Positions 8,202-38,277 of a stretch of 64,000 bases of DNA are shown in pieces. Numbering within the stretch: position 1 is the first letter of the stretch; every line of letters starts with the position of its first letter. Location: the NCBI GenBank assembly GCA_963997805.1, contig CAXEOD010000001.1, positions 3,635 through 67,634 of the forward strand, in the 5' to 3' direction. The position numbers and the translations under genes are program-made. Origin of the DNA: an uncultured Candidatus Poseidoniales archaeon (GTDB taxonomy: Archaea > Thermoplasmatota > Poseidoniia > Poseidoniales > Thalassarchaeaceae). A model generated the notes under the pieces. It saw nothing but the letters and a program-made list of their open reading frames with translations. It made no database searches and was not told the DNA's origin.

Positions 8202-8288
8202 GATATCAAACTAAAATCACATAATTTGACCCCCTAGGGGTCAGAACCCTTTGCGCAAAGTTTTGAAGGGGGCCCCATCTCTCAGCAA

Positions 8289-9233
8289 TTGGTCAATATG
8301 GCTTCAGGAACAGGAATTAGGTTAAACGGCGCGCTAAGCATCCTTTTGGTATTACTACTGGTTTTAGGTGGCATGGCATCAATGTCATCCCTTGAGATGA
8401 ATGATACAGCCGCTGCAGGTGATAGTGGTAATGACGCTGTGGACAGCGACGCAAAGAAGACTGATTCAACTCTAGACAAAAGTGAATCTGCTTGGTTAGA
8501 GCGATGTAAAGAAATGAAGAACGTTGTACTTGATCGAGGTGACTGGGATCTGAATTCAGACACTCCACTTAGAGACCGTGGTGCTGCTACAGGAAGGCAA
8601 GCAGATAATAATGTAAATAACAATTCAACTGACAACAATACAGATGTTGTTGTTGACTGGCATTTACCGGACAACATTGTAGTGTCCAGAACTGCATCTG
8701 GTGAATATCTAATTCGAATTGTTGATGCAGATGGCAACATAACAGAGGAAGTCGTTACCGAAGAAGAATTCGCGGCATTCCTAAGAAACCACGGTTGGGC
8801 CACAACTGATGAGGTTGAACAAAACCAAACTGACCGAGCTGAGCACGACCGGGTTAGAGAAGAAATGGCGGCGTTGAATCTTGAAATTCTTGATGATGGA
8901 ACAATCATCATTACTCGTACCCACGGTGACTGGGTTGAGTACGAAATTATTCGAACTAGTGAGGATGGCTCAACTACTGTGATTCGAGTTAACCCACGGG
9001 GCACCGAAGTAATACACCCACAACCTGCTCGAGAAAAACACCACAGAGAAAATATGGGCGACCGTGACAGAGGTGAGGATGGATTTTCCCCTCTCTTTTC
9101 ATTCGCTGGCGAAATGGATGAAGGTGTTATGGAACGATGCCGAGAACTCATGCAGAGCGACAAGCGAACAATAGATGTTGATGTTTTGCGAATTGACCAC
9201 CCACTTGCAGAGCGAGATGGACAACGTAATTAG
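8289..9233 (+). CDS. Secreted or membrane-anchored acidic protein of unknown function
   Basis: N-terminal hydrophobic signal/anchor (ALSILLVLLLVLGGMASMSS); highly acidic composition typical of this genome; followed by a hairpin plus T-tract terminator; the antisense 293-aa ORF is Ser/Arg-rich and looks like an artefact. Confidence 0.5.
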   Translation: MVNMASGTGIRLNGALSILLVLLLVLGGMASMSSLEMNDTAAAGDSGNDAVDSDAKKTDSTLDKSESAWLERCKEMKNVVLDRGDWDLNSDTPLRDRGAATGRQADNNVNNNSTDNNTDVVVDWHLPDNIVVSRTASGEYLIRIVDADGNITEEVVTEEEFAAFLRNHGWATTDEVEQNQTDRAEHDRVREEMAALNLEILDDGTIIITRTHGDWVEYEIIRTSEDGSTTVIRVNPRGTEVIHPQPAREKHHRENMGDRDRGEDGFSPLFSFAGEMDEGVMERCRELMQSDKRTIDVDVLRIDHPLAERDGQRN

Positions 9234-10529: not shown

Positions 10530-12857
10530 ATGAAGAAAATTATTCTTATCAGCCTCATTTTGGTATTGTCAACTCTTGCCCTACCATTGGCTATTGCCCA
10601 GGAGGATGTGCTTCCTCCAGATGTGGACTATGAACCAGAAATGCGCATGACTAGACTATTCGCATATAGCCAAGATACACTATCTCCGGAACTAATTGAG
10701 CAGGCCGAAACTTCAAACCACGATTTCCCCGCAGGAGCTGTATCAGGGCCATCAAATGGGCCGACCATTACCACTCCTAGTTTCGTTCGGGATGCCCATA
10801 TTGGTAGTGAAGATTGGAATTTCTCACTTTGGGCAAGCGGGGATGGTCAAGTAAATATTGACCTCACCCTTTTCATTGATGGCACCGAATTAGACCAAGT
10901 AAATAGTGGTGGGATATCACTATCTGAAGTGAAACAGCGCATTGATTTCACGGGTGGAAATTTACCAGACAATATTTCAATTGACCAAACTCTTTCAATC
11001 CGCTGGACTGTTAATAGTGACGAGTTATTCCCAATCTTCAATTCTATCTCTTGCACAATCCACTGGGGCTCAGTTGAAACCCCGACAAATCTTACAATTT
11101 CTGCTGGGATGTACCAAATTGATGACCCTTACGTAGAGAATGAAGGAACACCATTCAGGGGTGAAGGAGAGAACTACTCACGCAGTGAAGTGGTTTGGGC
11201 TGTTCAGGCACGCTGGGCTATTGGCGAAGAACAACTGGAGAAGGAAACTCTAGTCTTACACGCTAATGACGGTGGCAAAGAGCTAATGCTTCAGCCCACC
11301 GGTGAGGGAATAAAATCAGACAATGGAATCTACCGCTGGGAAATTGAAGAATGGCATGACGGAGTAATTCTCTCAGCTCACGCGATGTGGAACGATACAT
11401 CTGGGAACCATGGAATGACAAATCAAGTCGTTGAAATGATGGACCCAAAGGGACCTAGTATCCTTTCTAGTGGACTCAAGGACATATTGTTTATCCTAAC
11501 AATACCAGTTCTCATTGGAGTAGGGTTTTGGCTCAAGGGTAGATACGAAACCCTTGAGGAGAAAGGAAAGGATACGGGACATGGACCTGGTAAAGAAGGT
11601 GATTTGAAACGCCTAGTTTTGGCAACTACATTTTTGATTGCTGGGATAAACAACGCTCTCATCCTCTATACTTTCCACACCCGTGAGTTGGGTGCTTCAG
11701 AAGATATCGTGATTCTACACCTGTGTTTACTTGCTTTTGCTCTTGGGGCTTTTGGCCCTATTTGGGGTGCGATTGCAGATAAATGGGGTCATCGTAAGCA
11801 ACTGATGACAGTTGCAATTATTGGAGCAAGTTTACTGATGATAACATTCCCATTCATGCCTCTTGAGGGTTACATCATTGTCTCAACTTTACAGGTTGCT
11901 CTATTCTCAGCGGTTCGGATGGGGGTTGCTGTTGGTACCGAATGGTATCCTGAACATAAAGGTGAGTTCCTTGGAGTCTTGTACGCTTTTGCCTCGTTTG
12001 CGGCAGCGATTGGATCAATGGTATGCAGTAAATTATATGTCACTTTATTGCCGATGAGCACCACATTTGCAATGCTTGGAATTGTAGGAATTTCAGTACC
12101 CGCACTACTGTTTGGCGCTTGGATGATAATGCAATTTGAAGGTGATGAGTTCTCCTGGCCAGTATGGATGCTGAAAGGTGGTAAGAAACCAGAGGCAGTG
12201 AAATTAACAATTTCCGAAAAATTGTCAATGTTCCGAGGCATGCTTCGTTTTGAAAGTAAATGGGCACTTCTCTGTCTATTAGGTGTAATCCTCGTTGCAA
12301 TCCCACGTGGAGCAGTTGTTCTAACTGCCCTACGTTATCTCGAAGTTGTCGGATTTGATGTTGATTTCACCGGCTTGTTAGAGGCATGGGCTGTGATTGC
12401 TGTCCTAATATTATACGCTGTAATTGGAAGAGTATGCGATGATCGTGGTCCACAAACTGTTCTACTTTGGTCAGCAGCAGCTTATGGAACGCTTTGGTCA
12501 ATCTTCAGCATTGGCCTTCCGCCAATGATAGCAGTGCTAATCTTTGTTGTTCCAATTTACCCAATGCTGTTGGTGTCTAATGATGCGCTAATGGCCAAGT
12601 TCACCAATGATGATGAGCGAAATCGTGGGATTGGAATGGCCAGCCTTGTTGCCTTCATGGGCCAATCAATCGGTATTCTTGCCGGTTTCTTCGTGCTGGG
12701 CTACCTGATATCCTCGGGTAAGACTGACATAGTCGCATACGAGACCTTCTACAGAGCTAATGTGCCTCTTTGGATTCTTGCAATTTGCTTCACATACTGG
12801 CTAGCTAAACGCATTGACGCTAGTGAGAATGTAATTGATGCTGAGATTAGCGAGTAA
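10530..12857 (+). CDS. Membrane transporter (MFS-like, about 12 TM) with a roughly 300-aa N-terminal extracellular domain
   Basis: Signal peptide, soluble N-terminal domain, then about 12 TM helices with MFS-like loops (e.g. …GAIADKWGHRKQLM…); RBS GGAGGAG 8 nt upstream of the start. Confidence 0.6.
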   Translation: MKKIILISLILVLSTLALPLAIAQEDVLPPDVDYEPEMRMTRLFAYSQDTLSPELIEQAETSNHDFPAGAVSGPSNGPTITTPSFVRDAHIGSEDWNFSLWASGDGQVNIDLTLFIDGTELDQVNSGGISLSEVKQRIDFTGGNLPDNISIDQTLSIRWTVNSDELFPIFNSISCTIHWGSVETPTNLTISAGMYQIDDPYVENEGTPFRGEGENYSRSEVVWAVQARWAIGEEQLEKETLVLHANDGGKELMLQPTGEGIKSDNGIYRWEIEEWHDGVILSAHAMWNDTSGNHGMTNQVVEMMDPKGPSILSSGLKDILFILTIPVLIGVGFWLKGRYETLEEKGKDTGHGPGKEGDLKRLVLATTFLIAGINNALILYTFHTRELGASEDIVILHLCLLAFALGAFGPIWGAIADKWGHRKQLMTVAIIGASLLMITFPFMPLEGYIIVSTLQVALFSAVRMGVAVGTEWYPEHKGEFLGVLYAFASFAAAIGSMVCSKLYVTLLPMSTTFAMLGIVGISVPALLFGAWMIMQFEGDEFSWPVWMLKGGKKPEAVKLTISEKLSMFRGMLRFESKWALLCLLGVILVAIPRGAVVLTALRYLEVVGFDVDFTGLLEAWAVIAVLILYAVIGRVCDDRGPQTVLLWSAAAYGTLWSIFSIGLPPMIAVLIFVVPIYPMLLVSNDALMAKFTNDDERNRGIGMASLVAFMGQSIGILAGFFVLGYLISSGKTDIVAYETFYRANVPLWILAICFTYWLAKRIDASENVIDAEISE

Positions 12858-12859
12858 CG

Positions 12860-13582
12860 CTACTCCGCTCTATCCGTTATGTGGGCTAGAGCCACATTGG
12901 TTTCCTGACCAGCAAGAAGTTGTTGCCAGGAATGGATACGATATAATTGAGAATTAATTGTGATTACTTCTTTCCCTATTACCTCAAAAGATTGTGGTGC
13001 AAGACCCATTCCAAGCCCTGTGGCTTTTTGAATAGCCTCTTTAACAACCCAAACCTGATTGGTTAGTGTGCTTGCTGTTTTGGGATTTTTATCCCATGCA
13101 ACCTCTAGTTTTGTCAATTCTTCTCCTGAAGCCATTAGTGGTAACAAATTACGTTGCCGACCAGAGTCTGGTTCTACATCAATTCCTACGGAAAGTTCAG
13201 TTGGGCCAATAATAGCAACGGCTAAGCCGCCGCTATGGGTAATAGAAATTGAAATAGGTTCTGGGCCAATTAGAATTGGCCTCCGGTATTCGTCCCTCTT
13301 GATTTGGTATTCTTTGATATCATATCCTTTTTGTTGTAATAGATAGCCAATAAGAAATCGGCCTGAAGCATGTTCTTCAGCACGCTTTGCAACTTTGAAT
13401 GACTGAGCCTCAATCGGGTCTACAAAATGAAGATTAGAGATATCGGGCATTGAATCGGTTGGTGAAGTGATTCGCGTCTTCATCCAGATAGCATGAAATT
13501 CTCCTTCAACCGTTTCTGGGAGATTCAAAGGAATGGGTTTTGAAGCCGGTTCCCACATCCCATTCACCAATTGGAAATTCAA
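12860..13582 (-). CDS. Sfp-type 4'-phosphopantetheinyl transferase
   Basis: PPTase motifs GIDVE…(Mg-binding) and W-VKEAIQKATG (WxxKEAxxK); lies immediately downstream of the megasynthase gene with a 4-nt gap. Confidence 0.8.
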   Translation of the reverse strand: MNFQLVNGMWEPASKPIPLNLPETVEGEFHAIWMKTRITSPTDSMPDISNLHFVDPIEAQSFKVAKRAEEHASGRFLIGYLLQQKGYDIKEYQIKRDEYRRPILIGPEPISISITHSGGLAVAIIGPTELSVGIDVEPDSGRQRNLLPLMASGEELTKLEVAWDKNPKTASTLTNQVWVVKEAIQKATGLGMGLAPQSFEVIGKEVITINSQLYRIHSWQQLLAGQETNVALAHITDRAE

Positions 13583-13586
13583 TTTT

Positions 13587-16500
13587 TCAATTGCGATTCA
13601 ACGAAAAGGATTCACCTTCTGAAATAGGAGCCATCCCCTTCAATCGCAACCCTTTCATGGAAACAACTGGTTTACCATCCTGATCCACAACCAAGCAATC
13701 GTGAATGGTGACCCCATCATCTTCTGCACCTCTCCTCACAGCGCGCATTCTTAGTGAATCTGTCTTTTCAGGAGTTCTAATCAATTCAAGCATCTCAATT
13801 CCAACAGGAAGAGATTGCAGACCATCTATTTCCATTGCTACCATCCCAGCATTCTGGAAACACGCTTCAATCAACATTGGTTGGGCTTCTAATGTAACAT
13901 CTCCAACTAAGAATTGATTTGTGTTTGCTAACTGATGCCGAGATAATGCAATTCCATCTGCTCCAAACATATCATCAATACTACATCCACCTAAAATCCC
14001 ACCATGTGATTGGAATCTTGGGCCATGGAAGAAGCGCTGATAAACAAAATCTGAACCTAAAACAACCCCGCCTCTTGAAGGAGTTCCAATTGACGGTAAC
14101 TTCAACAATCCTCGGTCGGCATCTCTCTTTAACATCCTCACTAATCCGTTGTGATGAATTGTTGGTTCTCCAAATATCTCACCAGATTTAGTCATCAAAT
14201 CTGATTCCAATCGACACTTTACCCATACATTTTCCGAATTTTGATGTGAGAATTCAGCAACTACTCTCAACTTTTGCTCTTGCTTCAGTAATTTAATCGG
14301 CAAGCCAAACCTAACTCCTGCAAATCCTATTACTGTACAAGGAGGCCACAATAATTGTGCCCCTTGTGAAAACATCTCAAGAGCCATTACCCCTGGGTGG
14401 TATGGTACGTTATCGATTGCATGGTCTTCTAGGAATGGGTAACTATTGACATCTATTGTGCACTCATATGAAAGTGTATCAAAGGGCTGGTGAGCAACAA
14501 CTTTGTCTACGAATGGAAAACGCTTGGCGTCAGCTAACAATGCTGAAACATCTGGCGGCAATCGTTGTGGTGGCTCTCGGTCAGAACCATCATCATTCAG
14601 AACTCCGAGATTCCCTGCAAGTACTACTCTGCGTTTACCACCACGCATCACTTCATCGACGAACAATGAAACACCCTGCTCAACTGAAACGGTCTCAATA
14701 CCTGCTTCCTCAAACACCCTTTCTATTGAGCCACGGGTTGCCATCCCAACATCTTGCCAACCAGTCCATGCCAAAGCAACGCCGTGTGGCTCTGATTCAA
14801 TGTGAGCGAGGCGTGACATTTCAGCATCAAGAATACAATTTGCTGCAGCATAATCAGTTTGCCCTCCATTCCCGAATCTCCCTGCAATTGAGGTAAAAGC
14901 ACAGCAATACCGTAATTGTGTGCTGTGGTCTTTAACAGCATTAACTAGAGATTGCCACCCATCAACTTTGACAGACATCACGTTGCTGAAGGTATCCCAA
15001 TCTTTGTCAGCAACCATCTTTGAATCTTCAATTCCTGCTCCGTGAATTATCCCAGTAATTGGGGAACGCTTCTTCTTCAACTTCTTGAGAACCTTTCTGA
15101 CCTGTTTACTAACTGTCACATCACAGGCATGATAGGTCGCAGTGTTACCACTTTCTTCTATATCTGAAAGGGTTTTATGAATGTTAATTGAGCGCTCAAT
15201 CTTTGACCATGCCTTTTCCCACTCAACGATTGTGACATTGCCAGACTTCGAATCGCGCTGCATCTGTTTTCGCAGTTCCATCTTCATTTGCTGCAACACT
15301 TCATCTGAGGCATCGGCTAAACTTGAAAGAGAGTCGTCCAGTTTAGTTCGTCCAAGTAATGCAAAGTGACAACCAATTCCTCGATTTGCTTGTGCTAGAC
15401 CAACAATACAGGCAGCAGTAACTCCAGAACCACCTCCGGATACAATGAACACATCTTCGGAATTTAACGACTGAGGCTCGGATTCATGAGGTTCATCATA
15501 GATGCATACCTGCCATCTTCTCCCATCACCATCAATCCCAAGTTCGCGGGGACCCATGTACTCAATTTCGCTGAGTATTGTCGCCGCCAATTTATCTGCG
15601 TTCACCAAAAGTTCAGGTGCAACATCAATTGCTCTAGCCCTGATGTTTGGTCTCTCTCTACCAAACGATTTGACGATTCCGTGGGCACCAGCCCCTAATG
15701 GATTGAATCGATATCCGCCATTCCCATGTCGTCCATCGAGTGCTGAAATTGAACAAACAATTCCATCACTACGGTTTGCCAACTTTGCATCTATTTGTTG
15801 CAGTACCCCAAATAGACCATGACATACCATCTGTGTTTGTTGCTGGCTAGTAACCTCAGCCCAAGCAATTCCTGCTAAAGTACAAGGAGCAGTATGAATA
15901 ACTCCTGCAATGTCTAAATCTGCAATGATTTCACCAAATTGAGAAAGGTGGTCTTGATTCCCGGGGTCTAGTCTGATGATGTCAATCCCCCCATCTTTTT
16001 CAATTTTAATCTTTGAAGTGATGCTAGGGTCTAACATCAACCTAACAGCTTCAGACCCACTTGATTCAAGTTGCTCACAGATAGCATTTCCAAGCCCCCA
16101 TGAATCATCAGTCACGATGATGTATGAACCGGCCATATCTATTGGGTGGGCTTCAGATTCATCGGCTTCCTCAACTTCAACTACCCAGCGCCGAACTGTA
16201 CTTTCAACAGGGTTTTCTGAAGGAGATGGTTCAACCACCTCTAACTCTGGTTTAGCAGAAAGAACTTCTTTTTCCTCTGGTTCAGAATCTACTGTTACCT
16301 CACTAACCACCGGTTCGCCTCCGCGCATTGAATCAATGTAGGATATCATGTCTGCAAGGGTTGGATAATCACGCAATTGGAATGATTCGTCTACAGGTAA
16401 GGAAAAATGTTCACGACAATCGGCCATAATCTCCGCTTGCTTGACTGTATCAATCCCCAATTCACCTTCTAAATCTTGATCTAGCTCAAGGAAATCTTCT

Positions 16501-19500
16501 GGATACCCTGTGTGCTTTACAACAATTGAAAGAACACCTGACTCAACATCACTATCAGTATTCTCTAGGCTAGGAGGATTACTCACAACCGACTCTTCGT
16601 CCACAGTACTACTCTGCAAGGGTTGCTCTTCTTGGGGGTTTTGTTGCTCTTCCCTTCCCTCACCCATACTGACAATGTAACTAATCATGTGATTTAGTGT
16701 TGGATGTTCACGTAACTGAAATGAATCATCAACTGGCAAGGAGAATGTCTCCCGTAAGTCGGCCATTATTTCTGCCTGCTTAACCGTGTCAATTCCTAAT
16801 TCGCCTTCTAAGTCTTGGTCAAGTTCAATGAAGTCAGTAGGGTAACCTGTGTGCTTCGCAACCGTTTCCACTACCTGTTGTTCAAGACCCTCTGGATGTT
16901 CTCTAGCTGTTATTTCTGGAACTGTTTGACTTGCTTTCCCAGCAGGTGGAGTCTCCTCAGAGAATTCCTCTTTAACTTCCTGTTTTGGTGTTTCAACAGA
17001 TTGTGATGGACCTGATTTCGGAGGTTTAGGTGCTGAAAGGGCGGAATCAGGTTGCGCATCTTGAGCAGAAACCTCCCATTCACTACCTTCAACGCCACCT
17101 ATCAATGATTCATCCGGGGCAATGTATGCAACTAATTTCCGCTTCAATAAGCGTAATTCAACATCGTCACCGGCTTGATTGATTGCCCATTTCACAACAC
17201 TTTCTCTATCAACTCTATTCAGGGTTCTAGCAATTCTCTTGAACATTGTAAGAGCAATTTGACTGCCAAATCCTGCTGCATGACGGAGCATGTATTCGAC
17301 ATCATATTCTCCACCTTCAGAAAGCCTGAGGTTTCCTAAGGCAGGGTCGGGTTGTTGGAAGTTAGCAATCGGTGGTAACCGTCCTGATGCAAGTCCATAT
17401 AATCCGGTGGCATCTTCAACGCCAACACCCATCGGATGGCCTGTGAATCCTTTGGTATTAGTGATGATTAAACTCTCAGCCGATTCCTTGAAAGTGCCTC
17501 TAAGAGATTCAATCTCAGCAGCAGCCGAACCGCCTCTCGGAGGGGTAAATGGTTCATGCGACATAAATGTCGTTTTGGGGGCAATCTCATGTCTATCGAT
17601 ACCCCAACGGTTTTCCATTTCAGTCACGAACTCGTCAAAAGTTGAGGCTACATGAGTGACATCTAGCCTTGTAGGATGGAAGGCTGAATTACCTATGTGA
17701 GCACCCAATAATTCAGCGTACGGAACTACTCCTCTCTCATCAGCGTGATTTGATTTCTCTATTACAAAGGCAGCCCCACCCATACCTAGCAACATACCGT
17801 TGCGTCTTACATCGAATGGTAACGCTACTTCTTCCACTACATTCCCCATTGAATGGGCACCCGCAGCAGCGAAACCTGCACCAATCCATTCCATTAAATC
17901 GTCACCAGTTGAATCGTCACCACTGATGACAATCACTCTGTCGCATCGGCCTGAATCTAACCAATCCTCTGCGATTGCAAAGGCTGCTGGAGTGGATGCA
18001 CATGCGTTGTTAATAGCCAAATTGGGGCCGCGAGCACCAATCCATTGAGCAAACTGTGCGTGACCCATTGTTAGAATTTGAAGTAAGAACCTTCTATCGA
18101 AAGTACCATTCTCGTCAGACCCATTGTTTAGTGCGTGCCTCATGGCCATAGCTATACCTGGAAATACAGAGGCAAAAACCACGCCAGTTCTTTCACGAAT
18201 CGAGTTAGGAAGATTCCATCCTCTTACTAACCTCTTACCAGCACTACTAACCTGTTCAACTGGTAGAAGTGGAAGGGCAGCATCTTTGAGGGCCTCCAAT
18301 CCAGCAGCAAATGAAAGTGTAGTGGAAACATCCATTGCCGCCACTATTTTTGGATCGATCCCATACTGCTCTGCCAAATCAAAGTAACCACCGACTCCTG
18401 CTAGTTGAGGTATCGTAGCAAAGGAATCACAGGGTACGAATTCAGCTCTGCCATCCGGGTGTTTAACAATTCTAACCATATTTTTGTCAAGTAAACGCTG
18501 CTTGACATCATCAGGTAATTCGGTGATAAAGTTCTCTCCAGCAATGATTCTCTCTAATGCATCTGGATCGAATATTTCATCCATTCCCGGAAGACCAAGG
18601 CTTACTCCGGTCACCACATAGGGATTGGTTCTTCGTTCAGCATGGGGGTCTGAAGATAACGCAACACTTGTTGCACCTTTCACCTTTTGAGAAACTGTGA
18701 ATCCACTCGGAGGAGATGTCACCCACTCGTTTAGGGCTGCTAAGGATGTTAATTTGCTAGCATCAGCCGGACCTGACACAGATGCTTCAGAAGTGATGCT
18801 TGCTAGTAAATCAGATAACGTGTCATCAGTTATTCCAAGTGCTGAAAGATGGAGTTCACCTTTGATGAGGCGAGCGGGATAACCAGTAATATCTGAAATG
18901 CGGCTTGCAAGGTAACCCTCTTTGTCAACAACCTGTTGGACAACATGGTGTCCACTATCATTCGAAATTGTTTGATGTTGAATATTCTGAGATGTTGTCG
19001 CTAATTGGCCATTTGATGAGCCATCCGGTAGCGGTCTAGCGCGAACCCGTAATTCTTCCATCTCTTCACTACTAGAATCACCGCTAACAATTCCACTTTT
19101 CTGCCACACCTCCAAAGGTCCAGCCCTGAACCCTTCAGTGAGCCGGTTTGAATCAACCGAGTGCATTGATGGTACCCGTCCTGAAAGAGCACATACTGCT
19201 AGTGATGAAAGGAATGATGCTACACCTCCAACCTTAGGGTGGTTTGTGTTCGTTACAACCTTTGATTGTTCATCAAGAATCTGCTCGGTAAAAAGGGCTA
19301 ATGCTCGCTTTGGCCCAACCTCAATGAATAGGCGGCCACCTCGGCTATACATCTCTTGAATCTGCCTAGTCCATTCTACTGCAGACGACATCTGTGGCGC
19401 CAATTGACTTAGGATTGCATCGTGAACGGTTTCTCCATCCTCAAGACTTTCGGGATAGAATTTACCATCATAGTTAGCCGTGATAGGGATTGAAGGCAAT

Positions 19501-22070
19501 GACAAATCCAAACCTTCGAGGAAGCGACGAAGCGGTTTGTTGGCAGGCGCAACAATACGTGAGTGGAATGCGTGACTCGTCTGAAGAGTAACGCATGGAA
19601 TGTTCATTTCACCAAACCGCTGAATTGCATCTTGCATCGGTTCTGTTTCACCTGCAATGACTGCCATCATCGGAGAATTCTTGTTAGCAGCAATAATGTA
19701 ACCATCAACCGAATCGATTACCTCCTGAATTTTCTCAAGTGGTGCAGTGACGCTTGCCATCAATCCCTTATCATTCACTTCCACGCTACCCATTTCAGTC
19801 CCGCGAGCGGCCGCAGCACGCAGTGCGTCGTGGAATTTCATTATTCCAGAGACCATCAGTGCGGCGTATTCTCCTAAACTGTGTCCAGCAACCATGTCAG
19901 GGTTGATTCCATGCTCACTTAGCAATCTGTAAATTGCTAAATCAGCCGTCAACATCGCTGGTTGAGTGAATTCTGTTTGTTTCAACTTCTCTTCTGCAAC
20001 TTTTGTCTGCTCTTCAGTGAGGTTATCGCGCAGAACAAACTCAGAAAGTTTCTCACCTGCAAGAATTTCAGCCATGGTTGAATCAGCTTCATCCCACGTT
20101 TCACCAATCACTTCAAACCTCTTTGAGAGGTCTAGCGTCATACCAACATATTGACTACCTTGACCTGGGAACATCTGTACCAATTTTGCGTCGGCTGGCA
20201 GTGCTTCCTCTTCAGTAATGAAAACCATCTGTTTTGCTAGGAATGTCCATTTTGAGGGGTCTGAGATATTCTCACTGAGTAAATCCATTCTCTTAGCTAA
20301 TTGTTTCCAATTAGTCGCGACAATTCCACAGCGAGCACCTTGTGGCTCAAAATCAGATGACAAATCCGAAAGGACTGCTGAAAGTCTACGTCCGGCTGGG
20401 TCATCATCGAAATTTGAAATTGATGATGAGAAGAGAGTTGATTGAACACGTTCAATTTCTGAGGTTAAAGATTCAATACCATCAGCATTCAGAAGCAAGA
20501 TTCCTCCTTCAATCTCAAGTAATTCTTGATGGTTCATTGAAGGTGTTGTAGTTGAATCTAGTACGCTTGCAGCCGTTGGAACTTGGAATTGAGAAGGTGA
20601 ACTATTAGACAAACTTGCAACTAGGGATTTGTGGTGTTCTGGGTCGTACTGCTCAAGTGCACAATGGAAATTTGTCCCTCCAAAACCAAACGCAGACACG
20701 CCTGCACGTCTAGGTGCTTTAGATTGTGGAATTGGCCAATCAGAAGAAATTGTAGGGACATAAAATGGAATTTCGTCCCAATTGACTGAAGTATTTGGTT
20801 GCTCAAACCCTGCAGATGGAGGTAAGGTTCTGTGGTGAAGTGCTAAACTCGCTTTCAGTAATCCAGCCATTCCAGCAGCTGCTTTAAGGTGACCAATTTG
20901 ACTTTTTACTGATCCTACTGCAACAAAATCACCAGCGCCACGGTCTGCAAATACGCCAGCAAGTGTTGACAACTCTGTTGCGTCTCCAACCTTAGTGCTC
21001 GTTCCGTGGGCCTCAATCAATTCTACTGAGGATGGAGAATATCCAGCCTGCTGATATGCCCGCATAACTGCCTGCTTTTGACCTCTAGTTGATGGGGCTG
21101 TGATTCCTTTTCCTCTGCCATCACTTGAGGAACCTATTCCGCGGATGACGCTGTAAATTGTATCACCATCTGCAATAGCATCCTCCAATCGCTTGAGAAC
21201 AACACAACCTGCACCTTCGCCCATCACGAATCCATTGGCACGTACATCAAAGGGCCGGGAATGAAGTGGGGATAGGGCACCGATAGCGCTGAATTTAGCG
21301 TATGTCCCAGGATCCATAGTTCGGTCGCTTGCACCACATAACATCAAATCCGTTTGGCCAGTTTGTAGCATCTGGCAAGCCCCAACTAAAGCGGCAAAGG
21401 TAGAGGCACAAGCAGCGTCAGCACTGAAATTTGGGCCTTGTAAGTCAAGCAGATTGGCCACTCGGCCAGCGACTACGTTGGCTAATTCTCCAGCCATCGT
21501 GTCTTCATCAATTCGTGGAGTACCGTCAGTGATTGAATCTTTAAATTCTTCACTGTTAGTTGCTGGCATACCGGCTTCAACTGCCTTGCGTGCAATTTGG
21601 TCTGCGTAAACACGCTTACTTGACATCACTCGGTTTTCTCCACCTAAGGCATTAGCGAATATCACGCCACAACGAGCGTTTGGGAGTTGTAACCGACTGT
21701 TTTCACCAATATAACCAGCATCCTCCAATGCTGCGGCTGAAACCTCAACCGCCCACAATTGAGTATCATCAATTTGGGAAAGCGTTCCGGGCGGTTGTTT
21801 CCAACGCCGCCAATCAAACTCAAAATCTTCAACAAAAGCCCCAATCTTTGAGTAAGTTTTGCCTTCTATTGCACTTCCAGGTTCACCTTCAACCCAAAAA
21901 TCGTCGGGGTTCCACCTATCGTGAGGTACTTCACGAATTGAAACTTTGGCATTCAACACATTATCCCAGAATGACTCAATATCTGGTGCGTCTGGAAAAA
22001 TAGCAGACTGCCCAACTATCGCAATCGGCGCGAAAGGATATTGGGGGACTTCGTCCAGTTGTTCGGTCAT
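13587..22070 (-). CDS. PUFA-synthase/type I PKS-like multidomain megasynthase (2827 aa): KS - AT - ACP-like - KS - ACP - ACP - KR - DH
   Basis: KS1 (aa 12-475; Cys in DAACAST, His in EAHGTST and KSQIGHLKAAAG); AT (aa 630-960; FPGQGSQY and GHSLGE); ACP-like (aa about 1040-1095; TGYP…LGITDD); KS2 (aa 1150-1615; NNACAST); two near-identical ACPs (aa 1730-1800 and 1845-1915; HTGYP…DLEGELGIDTVKQAEIMAD); KR (aa 1965-2480; VSGGGSGVTAACIVGLAQANRG, YAAANCILD); PKS-type DH (aa 2510-2810; LEDHAIDNVPYHPG). Confidence 0.9.
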   Translation of the reverse strand: MTEQLDEVPQYPFAPIAIVGQSAIFPDAPDIESFWDNVLNAKVSIREVPHDRWNPDDFWVEGEPGSAIEGKTYSKIGAFVEDFEFDWRRWKQPPGTLSQIDDTQLWAVEVSAAALEDAGYIGENSRLQLPNARCGVIFANALGGENRVMSSKRVYADQIARKAVEAGMPATNSEEFKDSITDGTPRIDEDTMAGELANVVAGRVANLLDLQGPNFSADAACASTFAALVGACQMLQTGQTDLMLCGASDRTMDPGTYAKFSAIGALSPLHSRPFDVRANGFVMGEGAGCVVLKRLEDAIADGDTIYSVIRGIGSSSDGRGKGITAPSTRGQKQAVMRAYQQAGYSPSSVELIEAHGTSTKVGDATELSTLAGVFADRGAGDFVAVGSVKSQIGHLKAAAGMAGLLKASLALHHRTLPPSAGFEQPNTSVNWDEIPFYVPTISSDWPIPQSKAPRRAGVSAFGFGGTNFHCALEQYDPEHHKSLVASLSNSSPSQFQVPTAASVLDSTTTPSMNHQELLEIEGGILLLNADGIESLTSEIERVQSTLFSSSISNFDDDPAGRRLSAVLSDLSSDFEPQGARCGIVATNWKQLAKRMDLLSENISDPSKWTFLAKQMVFITEEEALPADAKLVQMFPGQGSQYVGMTLDLSKRFEVIGETWDEADSTMAEILAGEKLSEFVLRDNLTEEQTKVAEEKLKQTEFTQPAMLTADLAIYRLLSEHGINPDMVAGHSLGEYAALMVSGIMKFHDALRAAAARGTEMGSVEVNDKGLMASVTAPLEKIQEVIDSVDGYIIAANKNSPMMAVIAGETEPMQDAIQRFGEMNIPCVTLQTSHAFHSRIVAPANKPLRRFLEGLDLSLPSIPITANYDGKFYPESLEDGETVHDAILSQLAPQMSSAVEWTRQIQEMYSRGGRLFIEVGPKRALALFTEQILDEQSKVVTNTNHPKVGGVASFLSSLAVCALSGRVPSMHSVDSNRLTEGFRAGPLEVWQKSGIVSGDSSSEEMEELRVRARPLPDGSSNGQLATTSQNIQHQTISNDSGHHVVQQVVDKEGYLASRISDITGYPARLIKGELHLSALGITDDTLSDLLASITSEASVSGPADASKLTSLAALNEWVTSPPSGFTVSQKVKGATSVALSSDPHAERRTNPYVVTGVSLGLPGMDEIFDPDALERIIAGENFITELPDDVKQRLLDKNMVRIVKHPDGRAEFVPCDSFATIPQLAGVGGYFDLAEQYGIDPKIVAAMDVSTTLSFAAGLEALKDAALPLLPVEQVSSAGKRLVRGWNLPNSIRERTGVVFASVFPGIAMAMRHALNNGSDENGTFDRRFLLQILTMGHAQFAQWIGARGPNLAINNACASTPAAFAIAEDWLDSGRCDRVIVISGDDSTGDDLMEWIGAGFAAAGAHSMGNVVEEVALPFDVRRNGMLLGMGGAAFVIEKSNHADERGVVPYAELLGAHIGNSAFHPTRLDVTHVASTFDEFVTEMENRWGIDRHEIAPKTTFMSHEPFTPPRGGSAAAEIESLRGTFKESAESLIITNTKGFTGHPMGVGVEDATGLYGLASGRLPPIANFQQPDPALGNLRLSEGGEYDVEYMLRHAAGFGSQIALTMFKRIARTLNRVDRESVVKWAINQAGDDVELRLLKRKLVAYIAPDESLIGGVEGSEWEVSAQDAQPDSALSAPKPPKSGPSQSVETPKQEVKEEFSEETPPAGKASQTVPEITAREHPEGLEQQVVETVAKHTGYPTDFIELDQDLEGELGIDTVKQAEIMADLRETFSLPVDDSFQLREHPTLNHMISYIVSMGEGREEQQNPQEEQPLQSSTVDEESVVSNPPSLENTDSDVESGVLSIVVKHTGYPEDFLELDQDLEGELGIDTVKQAEIMADCREHFSLPVDESFQLRDYPTLADMISYIDSMRGGEPVVSEVTVDSEPEEKEVLSAKPELEVVEPSPSENPVESTVRRWVVEVEEADESEAHPIDMAGSYIIVTDDSWGLGNAICEQLESSGSEAVRLMLDPSITSKIKIEKDGGIDIIRLDPGNQDHLSQFGEIIADLDIAGVIHTAPCTLAGIAWAEVTSQQQTQMVCHGLFGVLQQIDAKLANRSDGIVCSISALDGRHGNGGYRFNPLGAGAHGIVKSFGRERPNIRARAIDVAPELLVNADKLAATILSEIEYMGPRELGIDGDGRRWQVCIYDEPHESEPQSLNSEDVFIVSGGGSGVTAACIVGLAQANRGIGCHFALLGRTKLDDSLSSLADASDEVLQQMKMELRKQMQRDSKSGNVTIVEWEKAWSKIERSINIHKTLSDIEESGNTATYHACDVTVSKQVRKVLKKLKKKRSPITGIIHGAGIEDSKMVADKDWDTFSNVMSVKVDGWQSLVNAVKDHSTQLRYCCAFTSIAGRFGNGGQTDYAAANCILDAEMSRLAHIESEPHGVALAWTGWQDVGMATRGSIERVFEEAGIETVSVEQGVSLFVDEVMRGGKRRVVLAGNLGVLNDDGSDREPPQRLPPDVSALLADAKRFPFVDKVVAHQPFDTLSYECTIDVNSYPFLEDHAIDNVPYHPGVMALEMFSQGAQLLWPPCTVIGFAGVRFGLPIKLLKQEQKLRVVAEFSHQNSENVWVKCRLESDLMTKSGEIFGEPTIHHNGLVRMLKRDADRGLLKLPSIGTPSRGGVVLGSDFVYQRFFHGPRFQSHGGILGGCSIDDMFGADGIALSRHQLANTNQFLVGDVTLEAQPMLIEACFQNAGMVAMEIDGLQSLPVGIEMLELIRTPEKTDSLRMRAVRRGAEDDGVTIHDCLVVDQDGKPVVSMKGLRLKGMAPISEGESFSLNRN

Positions 22071-22079
22071 ATTACCACC

Positions 22080-22955
22080 TCAATCTGAGATACTGTCTGG
22101 TACCATAATGCTAGAATATCCAGCATCAACGTGAATTATTTGTCCTGTGACACCTGAAGACAAGGGTGAGGCTAACCAAGTTGCACACCCTGCAACATCT
22201 TCCTGTGTGACGTTTCGACGTAATGGTGAATTCCTCTCTACATGGGCGAGAATGTCATCAAAGCCAGGAATACCCCCTGCCGCTAAGGTTTTGATCGGCC
22301 CTGATGAAATTGCATTGACTCGGTGACCATCTGGGCCAACATGATTTGCAAGTTCACGAGTCCACGCTTCTAATGCTGCTTTTGCTATACTCATCACACC
22401 ATAGTTTGGCACCCATCTAGTTGAGGCCGCATAGGTTAGAGTGATTGTTGAAGAGTTGGGAGCTAGATGTGGCAAAGCGTAGCGCATCACTCTTTGTAGT
22501 GAATGAGCGCTGATTGTCATAGCAGTGTTCATCGGGTCATTTTCAACGAACAACACTGGTCGGTCAAAACATGGGCGTGGAGCAAATCCGATAGCATGAA
22601 TGACAATATCTGCTTTTGCACCCGGGTTGGCATTTTGCCACTCTGTGAAAAATTCGGCTGTCAATTCATTGGTTTCAACATCAATTGGATAAAATGCTTC
22701 AATAGCATCTAGTTTCTCTTTTAGTTGAAATACACGGCTCATAAATCGCTTCTGAAAACCAAGTATTAACTTACATCCAGCCGCTGCTAATTGCTCGCAT
22801 ATAGCCCACGCAATACTGTCTTCGCTTGCTACACCAAATACTAGTGCAGTTTTTCCCTTTAGTTCCAACATAAAAGCACCTGTTCCTACCAACATCGGTT
22901 CGCCGGCGAAGACGCCTTCAAGACCTTTGCCCACCCTGTGAGACAACAGCGTCAT
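22080..22955 (-). CDS. FabI-like enoyl-(acyl-carrier-protein) reductase (SDR), probable trans-acting ER for the megasynthase
   Basis: LKGKTALVFGVASEDSIAWAICEQLAAAG (FabI N-terminal signature) and catalytic Y-x6-K YGVMSIAKAALEAW; 10-nt gap to the megasynthase. Confidence 0.8.
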   Translation of the reverse strand: MTLLSHRVGKGLEGVFAGEPMLVGTGAFMLELKGKTALVFGVASEDSIAWAICEQLAAAGCKLILGFQKRFMSRVFQLKEKLDAIEAFYPIDVETNELTAEFFTEWQNANPGAKADIVIHAIGFAPRPCFDRPVLFVENDPMNTAMTISAHSLQRVMRYALPHLAPNSSTITLTYAASTRWVPNYGVMSIAKAALEAWTRELANHVGPDGHRVNAISSGPIKTLAAGGIPGFDDILAHVERNSPLRRNVTQEDVAGCATWLASPLSSGVTGQIIHVDAGYSSIMVPDSISD

Positions 22956-26679: not shown

Positions 26680-29600
26680 TCACTTGTTCTCTCGCACCCA
26701 ATCCTGAAGTTGTTGCAGTGACCATCCTTGGTCAAAGTAACCTTGAATCGTTGCATCATCCCAGAATGGGAATAGACGCTTTGCTCGGTCCATCTTTGAA
26801 TCCCCTCCAGCAGGAGGCCCATCACCATACCCAGGTGGACCACTACTCTGAGTGGCATAGTCAGCACTACCGCCAGTTTCAGCGCGAGCAGGCCCTCTTG
26901 ACATCGGAGTTACAGCCTCGCCAGCAGGCAAATAATCTTCATCCTCAACGAAGAAATCACCCTCTTCTTCGGATTCTCTTCCTACGTACATCATGATACC
27001 AATTACTAATGCGACAAGAACTAAAATTACAGCAGCAATGCCACCATAAAGTGCCCAGTTGGTTTCAGTACCTCCAGAACTACCTGCTTCACGAATATGG
27101 AATGAAGGTGACTCACCTAATTCATTACCAGCAGCATCGTGTATTTTGAACATAACAGATGAAACAGGTTGCGGGAAAGCTTCAACTTGTACTCTACAAA
27201 TATTATTCATTGCAGGAGTAAAAGTTGTACCACATGAGTAGTTGAAGTTGCTTAATTGGCGGCCTTCAATCACCGTGAAGATTTGTAATTCTAATTCTCC
27301 GGAATCAGTACCAATATTGGTTACATCAACGAGCAGTTCGAATGGTTGTCCTGCCTCTGGTTGACCAGGTGAAATGATAATTTTGTTGATAACGAATTCA
27401 GCTTCCTTGTAGGTTAATGAGTAATCACCACCCTCAACGGCAGCACCAAATTGTCCACCAAGAGCAATACCGTTTCCTGCTGAATCGGTGCCTGTAACCC
27501 AGAACCTCAAATCAACGCCATCAAGGTCTGATGGTAATTCATGGCCAGGCCACAAATCAACACAGTTACCAATTGCACGATTTGGTGATGCTGACAAATC
27601 AAGTTGAAGATCAGCAGACTGCCAAGCATCTGGGAAAGTCGAGCGATATTGACTCCAATTCAAATCGTGCTCGTAGTACATCCAGTTGATTTTCATTGAA
27701 CCTGCTACTAGTTTCTGTCTCTCCTCTATTGCGAAATTGATGTTGACGCAATGAATTGTTGAAGATGGCAGAATATCATTATACTCTTCAGCATCAGAGC
27801 CAGCAGCCAATTGCCATGAATTCCAGACTACAGTGGGTGCCTCATTGTCGACCTTCACATAGAAGGTTTTGTCACCAGTCATTGAGAAATCGTTGGCCCC
27901 TGCTGGCAATGTGTCCTCACAATCTGGATTGTTTACATCCGTTGAGTCGCATACTCTGAAGACATATCGATATTCGTTGGTTGATAATGCCGCTGGAATA
28001 ACCAAGTCAAATGTTCCATTTTCAAAATTATAGTAGAAGACTTCTGTAGCTGCAGCCACATATCCGCTTCCAGGATTATCGGATTCACCACCAGGATAAA
28101 CTGGAGTTCGAGTCAATTCCATTGTCATTGGAATTTCAGGTTGAACGTCAATTCCTGACTCTAATGCAGCCTTGAAGAAGTATTTACCATGGAATTGTAA
28201 TAAATCACCGGGGCGAACAAAGCCACCATCTTGAGAACCAACTGAGTTTGTGATGAAACCTGAAGTATCATCAATAGTTAGAGATTCACTATCAAACTTC
28301 AAACCAGAAGAATATGCCAATAGTTGGATATAGCGACTGCTTGAAAGTTTGCTCTCACCATTCTCTGGATCCAAATCCTTCATGAAAATTTCAGGAGTTA
28401 TCACTCCCTGCAGATTAACCACACCCCAACGCATACGTATCGGTATGTCAACTAAGAATTCTGTCTCAAACGGGTCAATTAGTGCGGTGCCATCCAAGCG
28501 TGTTATACGTGGTCCGATTCCATCCACCTCAGCATTCAAAATATCTGCTGAAGTACTTTCACTCCAAGAAGTTCCGTTGCGAGGTGAGAAGTAAACCACG
28601 AGGTCATTACTAATTGCAGGGTTAAGATCAACTTTGACGTAATCTACATCTCTCCAACCGTTATCGTCAGTACCCTCAACCAACAAATGGTACACATTCC
28701 CAGCATACACTGATTTGTTGAACTCTGTCAAGGGGTTTCCACCAGCATCGCCAACATGGAATGAGTAAATTCCCGGAGGGCGAGATTGCCTGCCGATGTA
28801 GGTAATCAAATCTGATATGAAACCTCCATCTCCGCCATCGATTGAATTACCGGAAATATCAGTACCAGAAACAAACAAACTCGTGCGAGGAGCTGGTTCG
28901 CCGTTGGGGACTGTCAAACCGGTTTGACGGTCGTCAATGCAATCATTTGTTGGTGGACAAGCCAAGTTTGAGATGAAGTAAGTTGTATTTCCATTAACAT
29001 CAGTTGAATCCTCATCAAGAGGTACCGACTGATATTCACTCAAATCTGGAATTCTATCTCCGTTAATATCGTGTTGTGCTTCAACCCAGTAATTCAAAAC
29101 GAATGAAGGGGGAGTCTCAGGAATATCCCTAACCATGACTCGGAACTTTTGGTTAGCCTGAGGTGGTATCCAAGTATCGTCCGCGAGATCTCTCCAGTTC
29201 TGTAATCCCATCACGCTGATGTTGATGAGATAGGGTGAATACTGGTCAATGTAAACTGTCATTGGAATGCCACATTCTACATCAGGTGAAAGGGAAACAG
29301 GAGGGCAATTAGTATCGCCACCAGTATAATTGTCCATGCGTAGCCGATAGGTGTCGTTTCCTGCTGAAAGTTCTGGTATTGCAGGTTGCCACGAGAAGTT
29401 ACCCCCGAGGGTACCTGGGAGTCGGTCAATTTCGTTCCATTGGCTAATATTTGAGTCATTCTGCAATTCAAAGACAAGGGTGTAAGATGCAGGATCAGGA
29501 GCTACTCCTAAGTCCTCAAAACGCACAGTCCCTTCCAAAGTCAACTCATTATTGCTGTGAACATTCTCTAAGTCATTCTGAACTGCATCTGCTTGGTTGT

Positions 29601-36915: not shown

Positions 36916-38277
36916 TCACAGTAGGTTTGGATGCTCTTCAATATACTGAATAGTAATATCCCGAGCTAAATAATCAGGCTCATTCAAAATTGCCTTATGC
37001 AGAGGAATCACTGTCTCAACCCCTACCAACACGGTCTCATCTAGAGCTGTTTTCATCCCAGCAATCGCATCATCTCTATTTGCTCCCCAGACAACCATCT
37101 TGGCTAGTAAGGAGTCAAAACACCCAGGCATTTCGTAACCAACATGCGCGTGAGTGTCTACTCTTACCCCAAAACCAGAAGGAAAATGACAATCCCAAAG
37201 ACGTCCGGGAGAGGGGACGAAGTTTACTGGATCTTCTGCGTTAATCCGACATTGGATAGCGTGACCTGAAATCTCAATTTCATCTTGTGAAAAGGGTAAA
37301 GATTCACCTGCAGCAACACGGATACCAAGACTCACTAAGTCATGGCCAGTAATCATCTCTGTTACGGTGTGTTCAACTTGAACCCTAGGATTCACTTCCA
37401 AGAAATAGAATTCGCCGCTTGAATCGCGCAAGAACTCAAAGGTTGCCAATCCCTTGTAACCAACTGCTTCTGCGCCAGCACAAACTCTAGCCCCTATTTC
37501 CTCACGCTCTTCACTAGAAAGCCATGGGCCTTCTTCCAGTAATTTCTGATGACGGCGTTGTATCGAGCAAAAACGCTCTCCGAAATGAATTGCGTTTTTC
37601 CCATCAGCAAGCACCTGGAATTCTATGTGCTGTGCGCCCTCAATGAATTTCTCAATAAATACACGCTCGTCCCCAAAAGCCGAACGTGCTCGTGATTGAC
37701 AGAGATTGAGAGCAGAATCAAACTCGCTTTCTTGGTGAACTATTTGCATGCCAATCCCCCCACCTCCAGCAGCAGCCTTGATGATAACTGGATAACCGAT
37801 TTCGTCAGCAATTGTTGCGGCTTCTGAGGAGGTTTCTATTGGCTCACTACTACCCTTAGCAACTGGCAGTCCAGCCGCCTCCATAGCCTTCCTAGCCTCT
37901 ATCTTGTCACCAAGCAATGATATTACCTCTGATGATGGGCCGATGAAAACAATACCTTCTTCTTCACATCGTCGAACAAATGCAGCATTCTCAGCCAAGA
38001 ATCCATACCCCGGATGTATTGCTTGTGCTCCAATCTCCTTCGCTACCTCAATCACTTTTTCATAATCAAGATAGGCTTCTAGTGGGTTATCGGAATAATT
38101 TGGAATTGCAATATCAGAGAATCGAACAGGCAAAGAAAGGCGGTCTTCCCTGCCATGAATGATTGCAACCTCGCAACCCAAAGTCCGCAGTGCCCTAGAA
38201 ATTCTAAGAGCGATTTCACCGCGGTTGGCAATGAGCACCCTCTCAAACATGAATTGCCACGAGAGGCCCCGGTTCAA
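36916..38277 (-). CDS. accC: Biotin carboxylase subunit (acetyl-CoA/pyruvate carboxylase, ATP-grasp)
   Basis: …RVLIANRGEIALRI… N-terminus, ATP-grasp core, and the biotin carboxylase C-terminal domain (…EFQVLADGKNAIHFGERFCSIQRRHQKLLEE…). Confidence 0.85.
   Translation of the reverse strand: MNRGLSWQFMFERVLIANRGEIALRISRALRTLGCEVAIIHGREDRLSLPVRFSDIAIPNYSDNPLEAYLDYEKVIEVAKEIGAQAIHPGYGFLAENAAFVRRCEEEGIVFIGPSSEVISLLGDKIEARKAMEAAGLPVAKGSSEPIETSSEAATIADEIGYPVIIKAAAGGGGIGMQIVHQESEFDSALNLCQSRARSAFGDERVFIEKFIEGAQHIEFQVLADGKNAIHFGERFCSIQRRHQKLLEEGPWLSSEEREEIGARVCAGAEAVGYKGLATFEFLRDSSGEFYFLEVNPRVQVEHTVTEMITGHDLVSLGIRVAAGESLPFSQDEIEISGHAIQCRINAEDPVNFVPSPGRLWDCHFPSGFGVRVDTHAHVGYEMPGCFDSLLAKMVVWGANRDDAIAGMKTALDETVLVGVETVIPLHKAILNEPDYLARDITIQYIEEHPNLL

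Follow-up and report, generated by a model that had tools for sequence, protein, structure and literature searches.

Threonine at the phosphopantetheine attachment position of the acyl carrier domains in a PfaA-like lipid synthase family of marine archaea and bacteria

Marine Group II (MGII) archaea are uncultured, highly abundant and dominate the surface ocean. We analysed a stretch of 64,000 nucleotides (the window) from an uncultured Candidatus Poseidoniales archaeon of this group (assembly GCA_963997805.1, contig CAXEOD010000001.1), which encodes a large lipid synthase with two tandem domains of the acyl carrier protein (ACP) type. In both of them a threonine stands where, in every acyl carrier protein known to us, a serine holds the phosphopantetheine arm. 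This exchange is a family trait, found in MGII archaea and in many bacterial phyla, and the two residues, Thr1762 and Thr1875, probably are the phosphopantetheine attachment sites of the synthase, a reading to which we assign a probability of about 70%. The synthase is the MGII member of a large family of iterative PfaA-like lipid synthases that spans archaea and bacteria and can be assigned to 'Type R'. The first-pass annotation of the window had offered three readings of the carrier domains: inactive scaffolds, modification of the threonine by the co-encoded 4'-phosphopantetheinyl transferase (PPTase), or a different attachment residue. The evidence favours the second, because serine alone replaces the threonine, and does so repeatedly, the PPTase gene is syntenic in 63 of 68 loci and the catalytic domains of the synthase are intact.

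Both carrier domains hold threonine at the attachment position

The two sites and the domains that contain them are as follows.

16785-16787, minus strand: Thr1762 of ACP1, codon ACG, at the canonical phosphopantetheine-serine position; reads gaa tta gga att gac ACG gtt aag cag
16446-16448, minus strand: Thr1875 of ACP2, codon ACA, at the canonical phosphopantetheine-serine position; reads gaa ttg ggg att gat ACA gtc aag caa
16659..16886, minus strand: ACP1 (aa 1729-1804), GELGIDTVKQAE; family profile 119 bits, Pfam PP-binding, AlphaFold2 model, ACP fold
16317..16550, minus strand: ACP2 (aa 1841-1918), GELGIDTVKQAE; family profile 115 bits, Pfam PP-binding
Carrier region, MGII peptide: sequence ...DLEGELGIDTVK

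Read on the minus strand, the sites bear out the annotated exchange of serine for threonine in both tandem domains, encoded by two different codons. The coordinates given for them are right as well; the capitalised plus-strand triplets (TCC and CCC), in contrast, complement neighbouring glycine codons and not those of threonine. ACP1 and ACP2 have the motif ...HTGYPxDFxELDQDLEGELGIDTVKQAEIMAD... in common, and the Pfam model PP-binding (PF00550) matches two stretches of the synthase with 59.5 bits, its cutoff being 20.8. When aligned by phmmer with ACPs of solved structure (PigH, 5y08; actinorhodin ACP, 2koo and 2cnr; 7e42; 2fq0), the threonine falls exactly on the phosphopantetheinylated serine. 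A single-sequence AlphaFold2 prediction of the didomain was poor (pLDDT 50) and an alignment-based model of ACP1 was used instead (14 sequences, pLDDT 91.3). This model shows the four-helix fold of ACPs, and its helix II begins, at the attachment position, with the threonine (T36 in domain numbering). Foldseek relates it to AntF, amxACP, PigH and AcpP with TM-scores of 0.8-0.86 and root-mean-square deviations of 1.6-1.8 Å. What sets Thr1762 and Thr1875 apart is the lack of the conserved attachment serine that characterises PF00550.

The two domains are identical in 58 of 80 amino acids and in 156 of 240 nucleotides (65%), and 37 of the identical residues are encoded by different codons. Because the amino acid identity is high, the nucleotide identity is low and the codons differ, the duplication is old and under purifying selection. 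Fifteen domain residues are invariant within the family (G16, Y17, P18, D27, E29, L32, G33, D35, T36, V37, K38, Q39, A40, E41 and T65). A serine conserved elsewhere in the domain, which the first-pass annotation had named as the finding that would speak against the threonine, was searched for across the family alignment and is absent. Two other threonines are well conserved: T15 of the TGYP motif is nearly invariant and T65 of the PTL motif fully so.

Threonine is conserved throughout the synthase family

A protein search with the ACP didomain retrieved 842 proteins, and the best 120 of them contain 247 GxD-T sites and 3 GxD-S sites, in counts that are biased by the motif words of the search. 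The same bias applies to a scan across GTDB with one genome for each species, which gave more than 600 pattern matches, 547 of them confirmed, and from which the best 79 loci were used. These loci come from Poseidoniales, Myxococcales, Solirubrobacterales, a cultured Amycolatopsis strain, Chloroflexota/Caldilineae, Leptospiraceae/Spirochaetota, Acidobacteriota, Elusimicrobiota and Lysobacterales. A profile search in six-frame translations of the fetched loci and the window found threonine in 243 of 247 GxD[T/S] carrier domains and serine in 4. All four threonine codons are used (ACG 126, ACC 75, ACT 25, ACA 17), and the serine codons are TCA (2), TCT (1) and TCG (1).

A motif-blind survey was seeded with the second ketosynthase domain (KS2) of the synthase and run against 1.84 billion representative proteins, yielding 7007 matches at E<=1e-3 and 528 at E<=1e-30. 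Among 128 representatives with carrier domains, 110 are all-Thr, 5 are all-Ser and 13 were scored as mixed; one of the latter is a genuine Ser-Thr-Ser protein (P0207), and in most others a single copy of a Thr protein is degenerate or truncated. At the matched ACP-like domains of the best 150 representatives we counted 331 threonines and 17 serines; one of these serines lies in P0134, a protein that is all-Thr except for this degenerate copy. The remaining 11 matched domains comprise five degenerate non-carrier copies (Asp twice; Gln, Gly and Pro once each) and six truncated ones. Bona fide carrier domains, recognised by the motif GxD[S/T]-[VIL]-K, have threonine or serine only, and threonine accounts for about 95% of the carrier domains of the family.

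The alignment with homologues that the first-pass annotation proposed as a check thus finds threonine conserved family-wide, and its view that the residue is maintained by selection, and is no sequencing error or trace of a recent duplication, holds in both tallies (243 to 4 and 331 to 17). The family is present in hundreds of genomes of Acidobacteriota, Myxococcota, Chloroflexota, Actinomycetota, Elusimicrobiota, Spirochaetota and MGII archaea. The ACP region of the window is 100% identical in an independent metagenome-assembled genome (MAG; L002, 'Methanobacteriota archaeon') and 66-86% identical in about 37 Poseidoniales MAGs; on the bacterial side, a Korobacteraceae fragment (P0307) is Thr-type. 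Many bacterial Thr-type ACP proteins, such as P0007, P0012 and P0079, carry the precomputed Pfam label PF27202.1, which may be a model of the Thr-type ACP domain or of its linker.

Serine variants arise repeatedly among Thr-type synthases

The MGII sequences form one monophyletic group in a tree built from 41 full-length synthases. Two MGII MAGs, UBA596 and NAT135 (loci L007 and L038), have serine in both ACPs, and this pair is sister to the clade of the window and L004, nested among Thr-type sequences. Their carriers, like those of P0121 and P0030, read GVDSVKQAE, with the serine codons TCA, TCT and TCG. The operon of a FabI-like gene, the synthase and the PPTase is retained in both, and the subclade is a natural Thr-to-Ser 'mutant' for comparison. 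In a KS2 tree of 145 sequences the nearest neighbours of each of six Ser-containing representatives are Thr-type; therefore, at least six independent switches from threonine to serine have taken place. These changes usually hit all tandem copies, and one protein is intermediate. The 2353 amino acids of P0207 include three carrier domains that read Ser, Thr and Ser within one polypeptide. A site that swaps between threonine and serine only, and that returns to serine again and again, behaves as a site whose hydroxyl group is used, and the exclusive exchange points to a requirement for this hydroxyl.

The catalytic domains of the synthase are intact

The synthase gene and its further domains are listed here.

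13587..22070, minus strand: synthase open reading frame (ORF), 2827 aa; iterative type I, PfaA-like 'Type R', with the order ketosynthase 1 (KS1), acyltransferase (AT), degenerate ACP-like stretch, KS2, ACP1, ACP2, ketoreductase (KR) and dehydratase (DH), as read from the ORF, Pfam and NCBIfam
20625..22028, minus strand: KS1 (aa 15-482), Cys-His-His triad in DAACAS / HGTSTKVGD / IGHLK; Pfam ketoacyl-synt and Ketoacyl-synt_C, motif conservation
19182..20174, minus strand: AT (aa 633-963), GHSLG motif; Pfam Acyl_transf_1 125 bits, TIGR00128 FabD-like, GHSLGE conserved
18777..18902, minus strand: degenerate ACP-like remnant (aa 1057-1098), ITGYP...LGITDDT; 4.8 bits against the family ACP profile, Asp at the equivalent of the attachment site
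17076..18638, minus strand: KS2 (aa ~1145-1665), called 'CLF' in the literature; from the translation, Cys/His/His in NNACAST, SHEPFTPPRGG and GFTGHPMG
14751..15179, minus strand: KR (aa 2298-2440), catalytic Tyr in GGQTDYAAAN; Pfam KR 99 bits, motif conserved
13638..14510, minus strand: polyketide synthase (PKS)-type DH (aa 2521-2811), catalytic His in LEDHAIDNVPYHPGV; Pfam PKS_DH_N and PS-DH, motif conserved

The Cys-His-His triad of KS1, the GHSLG motif of the AT, the Cys/His/His of KS2, the tyrosine of the KR and the histidine of the DH are kept in all 41 full-length members. Because these motifs are conserved without exception, the synthase is under selection to remain functional. The active-site cysteine in NNACAST and both histidine motifs of KS2, or 'CLF', are present in 41 of 41 sequences, and KS2 has the appearance of a second, potentially active ketosynthase rather than that of a chain-length factor.

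Within the synthase proteins no carriers were detected besides the Thr domains. The first-pass annotation had listed a third ACP-like domain without a serine at the site. That there is no serine is correct, as the equivalent position is Asp (LGITD) here and E, D, G, Q, P or S in other family members; a third carrier of the Thr type, however, was rejected as an interpretation. The stretch has a marginal match of 4.8 bits to the family ACP profile and none in Pfam, and it is a degenerate remnant. The number of carrier copies follows the phylogeny, with two in the MGII clade of the window (window, L004, L007 and L038), three in the other MGII clade (L006-L035) and two to six in bacteria.

A conserved PPTase partner and the gene neighbourhood

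The following genes accompany the synthase.

12860..13582, minus strand: Sfp-type PPTase, directly downstream, a few bases past the stop codon of the synthase; Pfam ACPS and 4PPT_N
22080..22955, minus strand: FabI-like enoyl reductase (ER), immediately upstream of the synthase; Pfam adh_short_C2 227 bits
25443..26648, minus strand: acyl-CoA dehydrogenase (ACAD), 3.4 kb upstream of the synthase; Pfam, synteny

The PPTase scores above the cutoff with both Pfam models (35.0 bits for ACPS and 29.1 bits for 4PPT_N). Compared with the core patterns (I/V)SHxG, GxDxE and WxxKE(A/S)xxK, its motifs ITHSG, VGIDVE and WVVKEAIQKATG align to those of 2cg5, 6qwu, 1qr0 and 4mrt, among them human AASDHPPT, PptAb and Sfp. 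In an iterative search of loci with at least 1 kb of downstream sequence, a PPTase homologue was found downstream on the same strand in the 63 of 68 loci mentioned above, including every such MGII locus, Thr-type and Ser-type alike. Most loci have a gap of 9-450 nt between the two genes. In others, namely in Acidobacteriota, Lysobacterales, Solirubrobacterales and Actinomycetes, it measures about 5.7 kb, and there a biotin-carboxylase/acetyl-CoA carboxylase (ACC) gene lies just after the synthase in most cases. In the locus of Amycolatopsis sp. NPDC021455 (L042) the ACC gene was read after the synthase and no PPTase was found within the locus. Bacterial loci often have a multidomain, eukaryote-like ACC between synthase and PPTase.

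On the upstream side, the best NCBIfam matches of the gene at 22080..22955 are FabI models, all of them under their cutoffs (NF005615, 225.6 against 391). The FabI-like ER is found upstream in every MGII locus that reaches that far (L002-L038 and L065), and it is the probable trans-acting ER of the synthase. Bacterial loci have a homologous ACAD immediately upstream of the synthase, in the place of the FabI-like ER. The reductive partner is thus swapped between the domains of life, with a FabI-like ER in MGII and an ACAD in bacteria. The neighbours of the synthase in the window are the FabI-like ER, TatD, the ACAD, the PPTase and a major facilitator superfamily (MFS) transporter; PfaB-, PfaC- or PfaD-like genes are not among them. 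Neither a phmmer search with an E. coli AcpP sequence nor a PROSITE-like motif scan found a canonical ACP in the 64-kb window.

Proposed mechanism and its weak points

Taken as attachment sites, the threonines would function in the following way. The Sfp-type PPTase encoded downstream would move 4'-phosphopantetheine from coenzyme A (CoA), the donor of this group, to the hydroxyls of Thr1762 and Thr1875 and so give O-phosphopantetheinyl-threonine holo-carriers at the N-terminus of helix II. The AT would then load malonyl units onto these carriers, and KS1/KS2, KR and DH together with the FabI-like ER would assemble the chain of a fatty-acyl or polyketide-like lipid. The reduction cycle in MGII would be completed by the trans-acting FabI-like ER.

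Several points weigh against this proposal. Both the chemical modification of the threonine and the nature of the product are what we infer from the genes. In E. coli ACP, substitutions of threonine for the attachment serine have been used as non-modifiable variants; therefore, canonical PPTases may not accept threonine, and the PPTase of the cluster would need an adapted acceptor pocket. A comparison of Ser-type with Thr-type MGII loci gave no clean signal of co-varying PPTase residues. At the position that follows the catalytic Glu, the two Ser-type MGII loci have Ser and the Thr-type ones mostly Ala, with L010 as a counter-example, and both residues are common there among Sfp-type enzymes in general. 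To this we add the motif bias of the first protein search and of the genome scan; the KS2-seeded survey corrects it, yet covers the best 150 representatives. Our searches of open-access full text found no report of a Thr-linked phosphopantetheine or of the MGII synthase, and a report in a subscription journal could exist.

Alternative explanations

The best of the alternatives, which we nevertheless regard as unlikely, is that the Thr domains are unmodified, non-catalytic scaffolds and that the synthase uses CoA- or pantetheine-bound substrates or a separate Ser-type ACP. Carrier decay does occur in the family, as is seen from the degenerate ACP-like remnant in the same protein; the remnant, however, drifts to D, E, G, Q or P, whereas bona fide sites have Thr or Ser only. 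Within the linker region, conservation is moreover highest in the Thr domains, whose 15 invariant residues include the whole helix-II recognition motif and which are kept in two to six tandem copies. Canonical PPTases are described as Ser-specific, and ACP is missing from most archaea, whose fatty acid synthesis is believed to proceed without it, which fits a scaffold better than a carrier. Against this stands the PPTase kept beside the synthase in nearly all loci, archaea with no other substrate in view included, and no stand-alone ACP was detected in the window to take the place of the Thr domains.

It is very improbable that phosphopantetheine is attached to another residue, the threonine of TGYP or that of YPTL, with a merely structural threonine at helix II. 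Their conservation would suit such a role. In the model, however, T15 and T65 are placed where helix I ends and shortly ahead of helix IV, which is not where PPTases and partner enzymes engage ACPs in solved complexes. Some Ser variants also do without one of them, since P0258 reads RAGIP and P0207 has no PTL threonine. The residue that toggles between Thr and Ser is the one at the canonical position of an otherwise canonical DLGxD(S/T) motif.

Just as small is the chance that the threonine bears some other modification or tether, for example an acyl group attached directly as an oxo-ester or some other phospho-linked cofactor. That our searches of open-access full text found no precedent for Thr-phosphopantetheine leaves room for it. 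The sole conserved modifying enzyme of the module is, however, an Sfp-type PPTase with CoA/Mg-binding core motifs, and by established enzymology Claisen condensation by the KS and loading by the AT use thioesters. The lineages that reverted to serine retain the same synthase and PPTase.

An artefact of this contig alone, from faulty sequencing or assembly or from a recent duplication, for which nothing speaks beyond the unusual residue, is refuted by the identical ACP region in the independent MAG L002, the hundreds of genomes with threonine, the four threonine codons and the 65% nucleotide identity between ACP1 and ACP2.

Comparison with known systems

The 'Type R' secondary lipid synthase of Koribacter, Solibacter, Elusimicrobium and Roseiflexus was described as a single pfaA homologue with the layout KS-MAT-CLF-ACP(3-6)-KR and a PPTase gene after it, with an ACC inserted in Koribacter and a product that is not known (Shulse & Allen 2011, PMC3098273, PLoS One 6:e20146). 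Among the open-access papers searched, this one alone describes the family; threonine (0 occurrences) and archaea are not mentioned in it. The window synthase fits this architecture with its order KS-AT-KS2-ACP2-KR-DH, ACP2 here standing for two ACPs, and its downstream PPTase gene. Two more features agree: the ACC between synthase and PPTase in Koribacter, which we see as the gaps of about 5.7 kb in bacteria, and the common phyla Acidobacteriota, Elusimicrobiota and Chloroflexota. It differs in its two ACPs, just outside the published range of 3-6 (relatives have 2-6), in coming from an MGII archaeon with a FabI-like ER in place of the upstream ACAD of bacteria, and in the active-site cysteine that the 'CLF' of the family retains. 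The window synthase groups with homologues from Elusimicrobiota, Acidobacteriota and Chloroflexota MAGs in the set of sequences compared. A protein search seeded with an Elusimicrobium homologue returned fragments of at most 786 aa and no Type R exemplar strain. The proposed Thr attachment residue, for which our searches of open-access full text found no report, is probably new, whereas the Type R architecture and its PPTase are already known (Shulse & Allen 2011, PMC3098273).

The first-pass annotation had compared the carrier domains with those of polyunsaturated fatty acid synthases. PfaA is indeed the top NCBIfam match of the synthase (TIGR02813, 865.2 bits), under its cutoff of 1010.1; the proper comparison family is nevertheless the PfaA-like 'Type R' and not canonical PfaA. 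With PfaA it has in common an iterative, malonyl-fed megasynthase of KS, AT, tandem ACP, KR and DH and an Sfp-type PPTase partner (PfaE). The differences are the extra KS2 between AT and ACPs, the lack of PfaB/C/D partners nearby and the carrier motif, LGIDT-VKQAE here and LGIDS-IKRVE in PfaA. The closest solved sequence relative of the carrier domain is the PigH ACP doublet of prodigiosin synthesis (PDB 5Y08; E 7e-12), also a tandem and also with TGY...L(E)xDLG(V/I)D, whereas it has serine at the attachment site, about 30% identity and another pathway. Canonical ACPs and peptidyl carrier proteins (PF00550) share the four-helix fold and, where helix II begins, the D-x-G-x-D-(S) motif, and they are modified by AcpS- or Sfp-type PPTases; their defining serine is what the Type R-like family has replaced by threonine in about 95% of its domains.

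Other features of the window

The proteins of the window include PCNA, Cdc6/Orc1, Nop56/58 and a TBP-like protein. At 43857..44900 (minus strand) a cytidylyltransferase-like domain of the phosphopantetheine adenylyltransferase (PPAT) type is fused to DUF359, which we take to be the archaeal dephospho-CoA kinase family; this fusion would account for the final two steps of CoA synthesis. At 36916..38277 (minus strand), 15 kb from the synthase, lies a stand-alone biotin carboxylase (CPSase_L_D2, Biotin_carb_N, Biotin_carb_C), which could be part of an acetyl-CoA carboxylase feeding malonyl-CoA. Convergent with the PPTase gene, an MFS transporter of 775 aa at 10530..12857 (plus strand) has an extension of about 360 aa before its MFS domain, and it might export the product of the synthase. 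Large ORFs without any Pfam match lie at 26680..32523 (minus strand, 1947 aa) and at 45255..47906 (minus strand, 883 aa), and a further large ORF of 1750 aa at 53965..59217 (plus strand). Two ORFs of about 300 aa on opposite strands, at 8282..9163 (minus) and 8289..9233 (plus), overlap almost fully and have no Pfam match; at most one of them is likely to be real.

Implications

The serine rule underlies textbooks, the 'phosphopantetheine attachment site' motifs of PROSITE and Pfam and the calls of active and inactive carriers in genome mining. It is rather likely that O-(4'-phosphopantetheinyl)-threonine is the native linkage of the whole lipid megasynthase family and that it is installed by a Thr-competent clade of Sfp-type PPTases. 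This would be a new post-translational linkage, and tools that discard non-Ser carriers as dead would be wrong for the Type R-like family. The PPTases would form a specificity class, maybe orthogonal to host AcpS/Sfp and then useful for engineering. As to why threonine would be preferred, insulation from host AcpS/AcpH or a more hydrolysis-resistant phosphodiester are speculations.

For MGII archaea, genome papers in open-access full text describe fatty-acid degradation alone and do not mention PKS, ketoacyl synthase or ACP, and fatty acids go unmentioned in a paper on the lipids of planktonic archaea. MGII were reported to lack glycerol-1-phosphate (G1P) dehydrogenase and to possess glycerol-3-phosphate dehydrogenase (Rinke et al. 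2018). If threonine is the attachment residue, these archaea would have a self-contained, ACP-dependent fatty-acyl synthase, made up of FabI-like ER, synthase and PPTase, in a group without the G1P backbone enzyme, which bears on the 'lipid divide'. The intact and conserved operon of these three genes is a testable candidate for the synthesis of acyl lipids in MGII.

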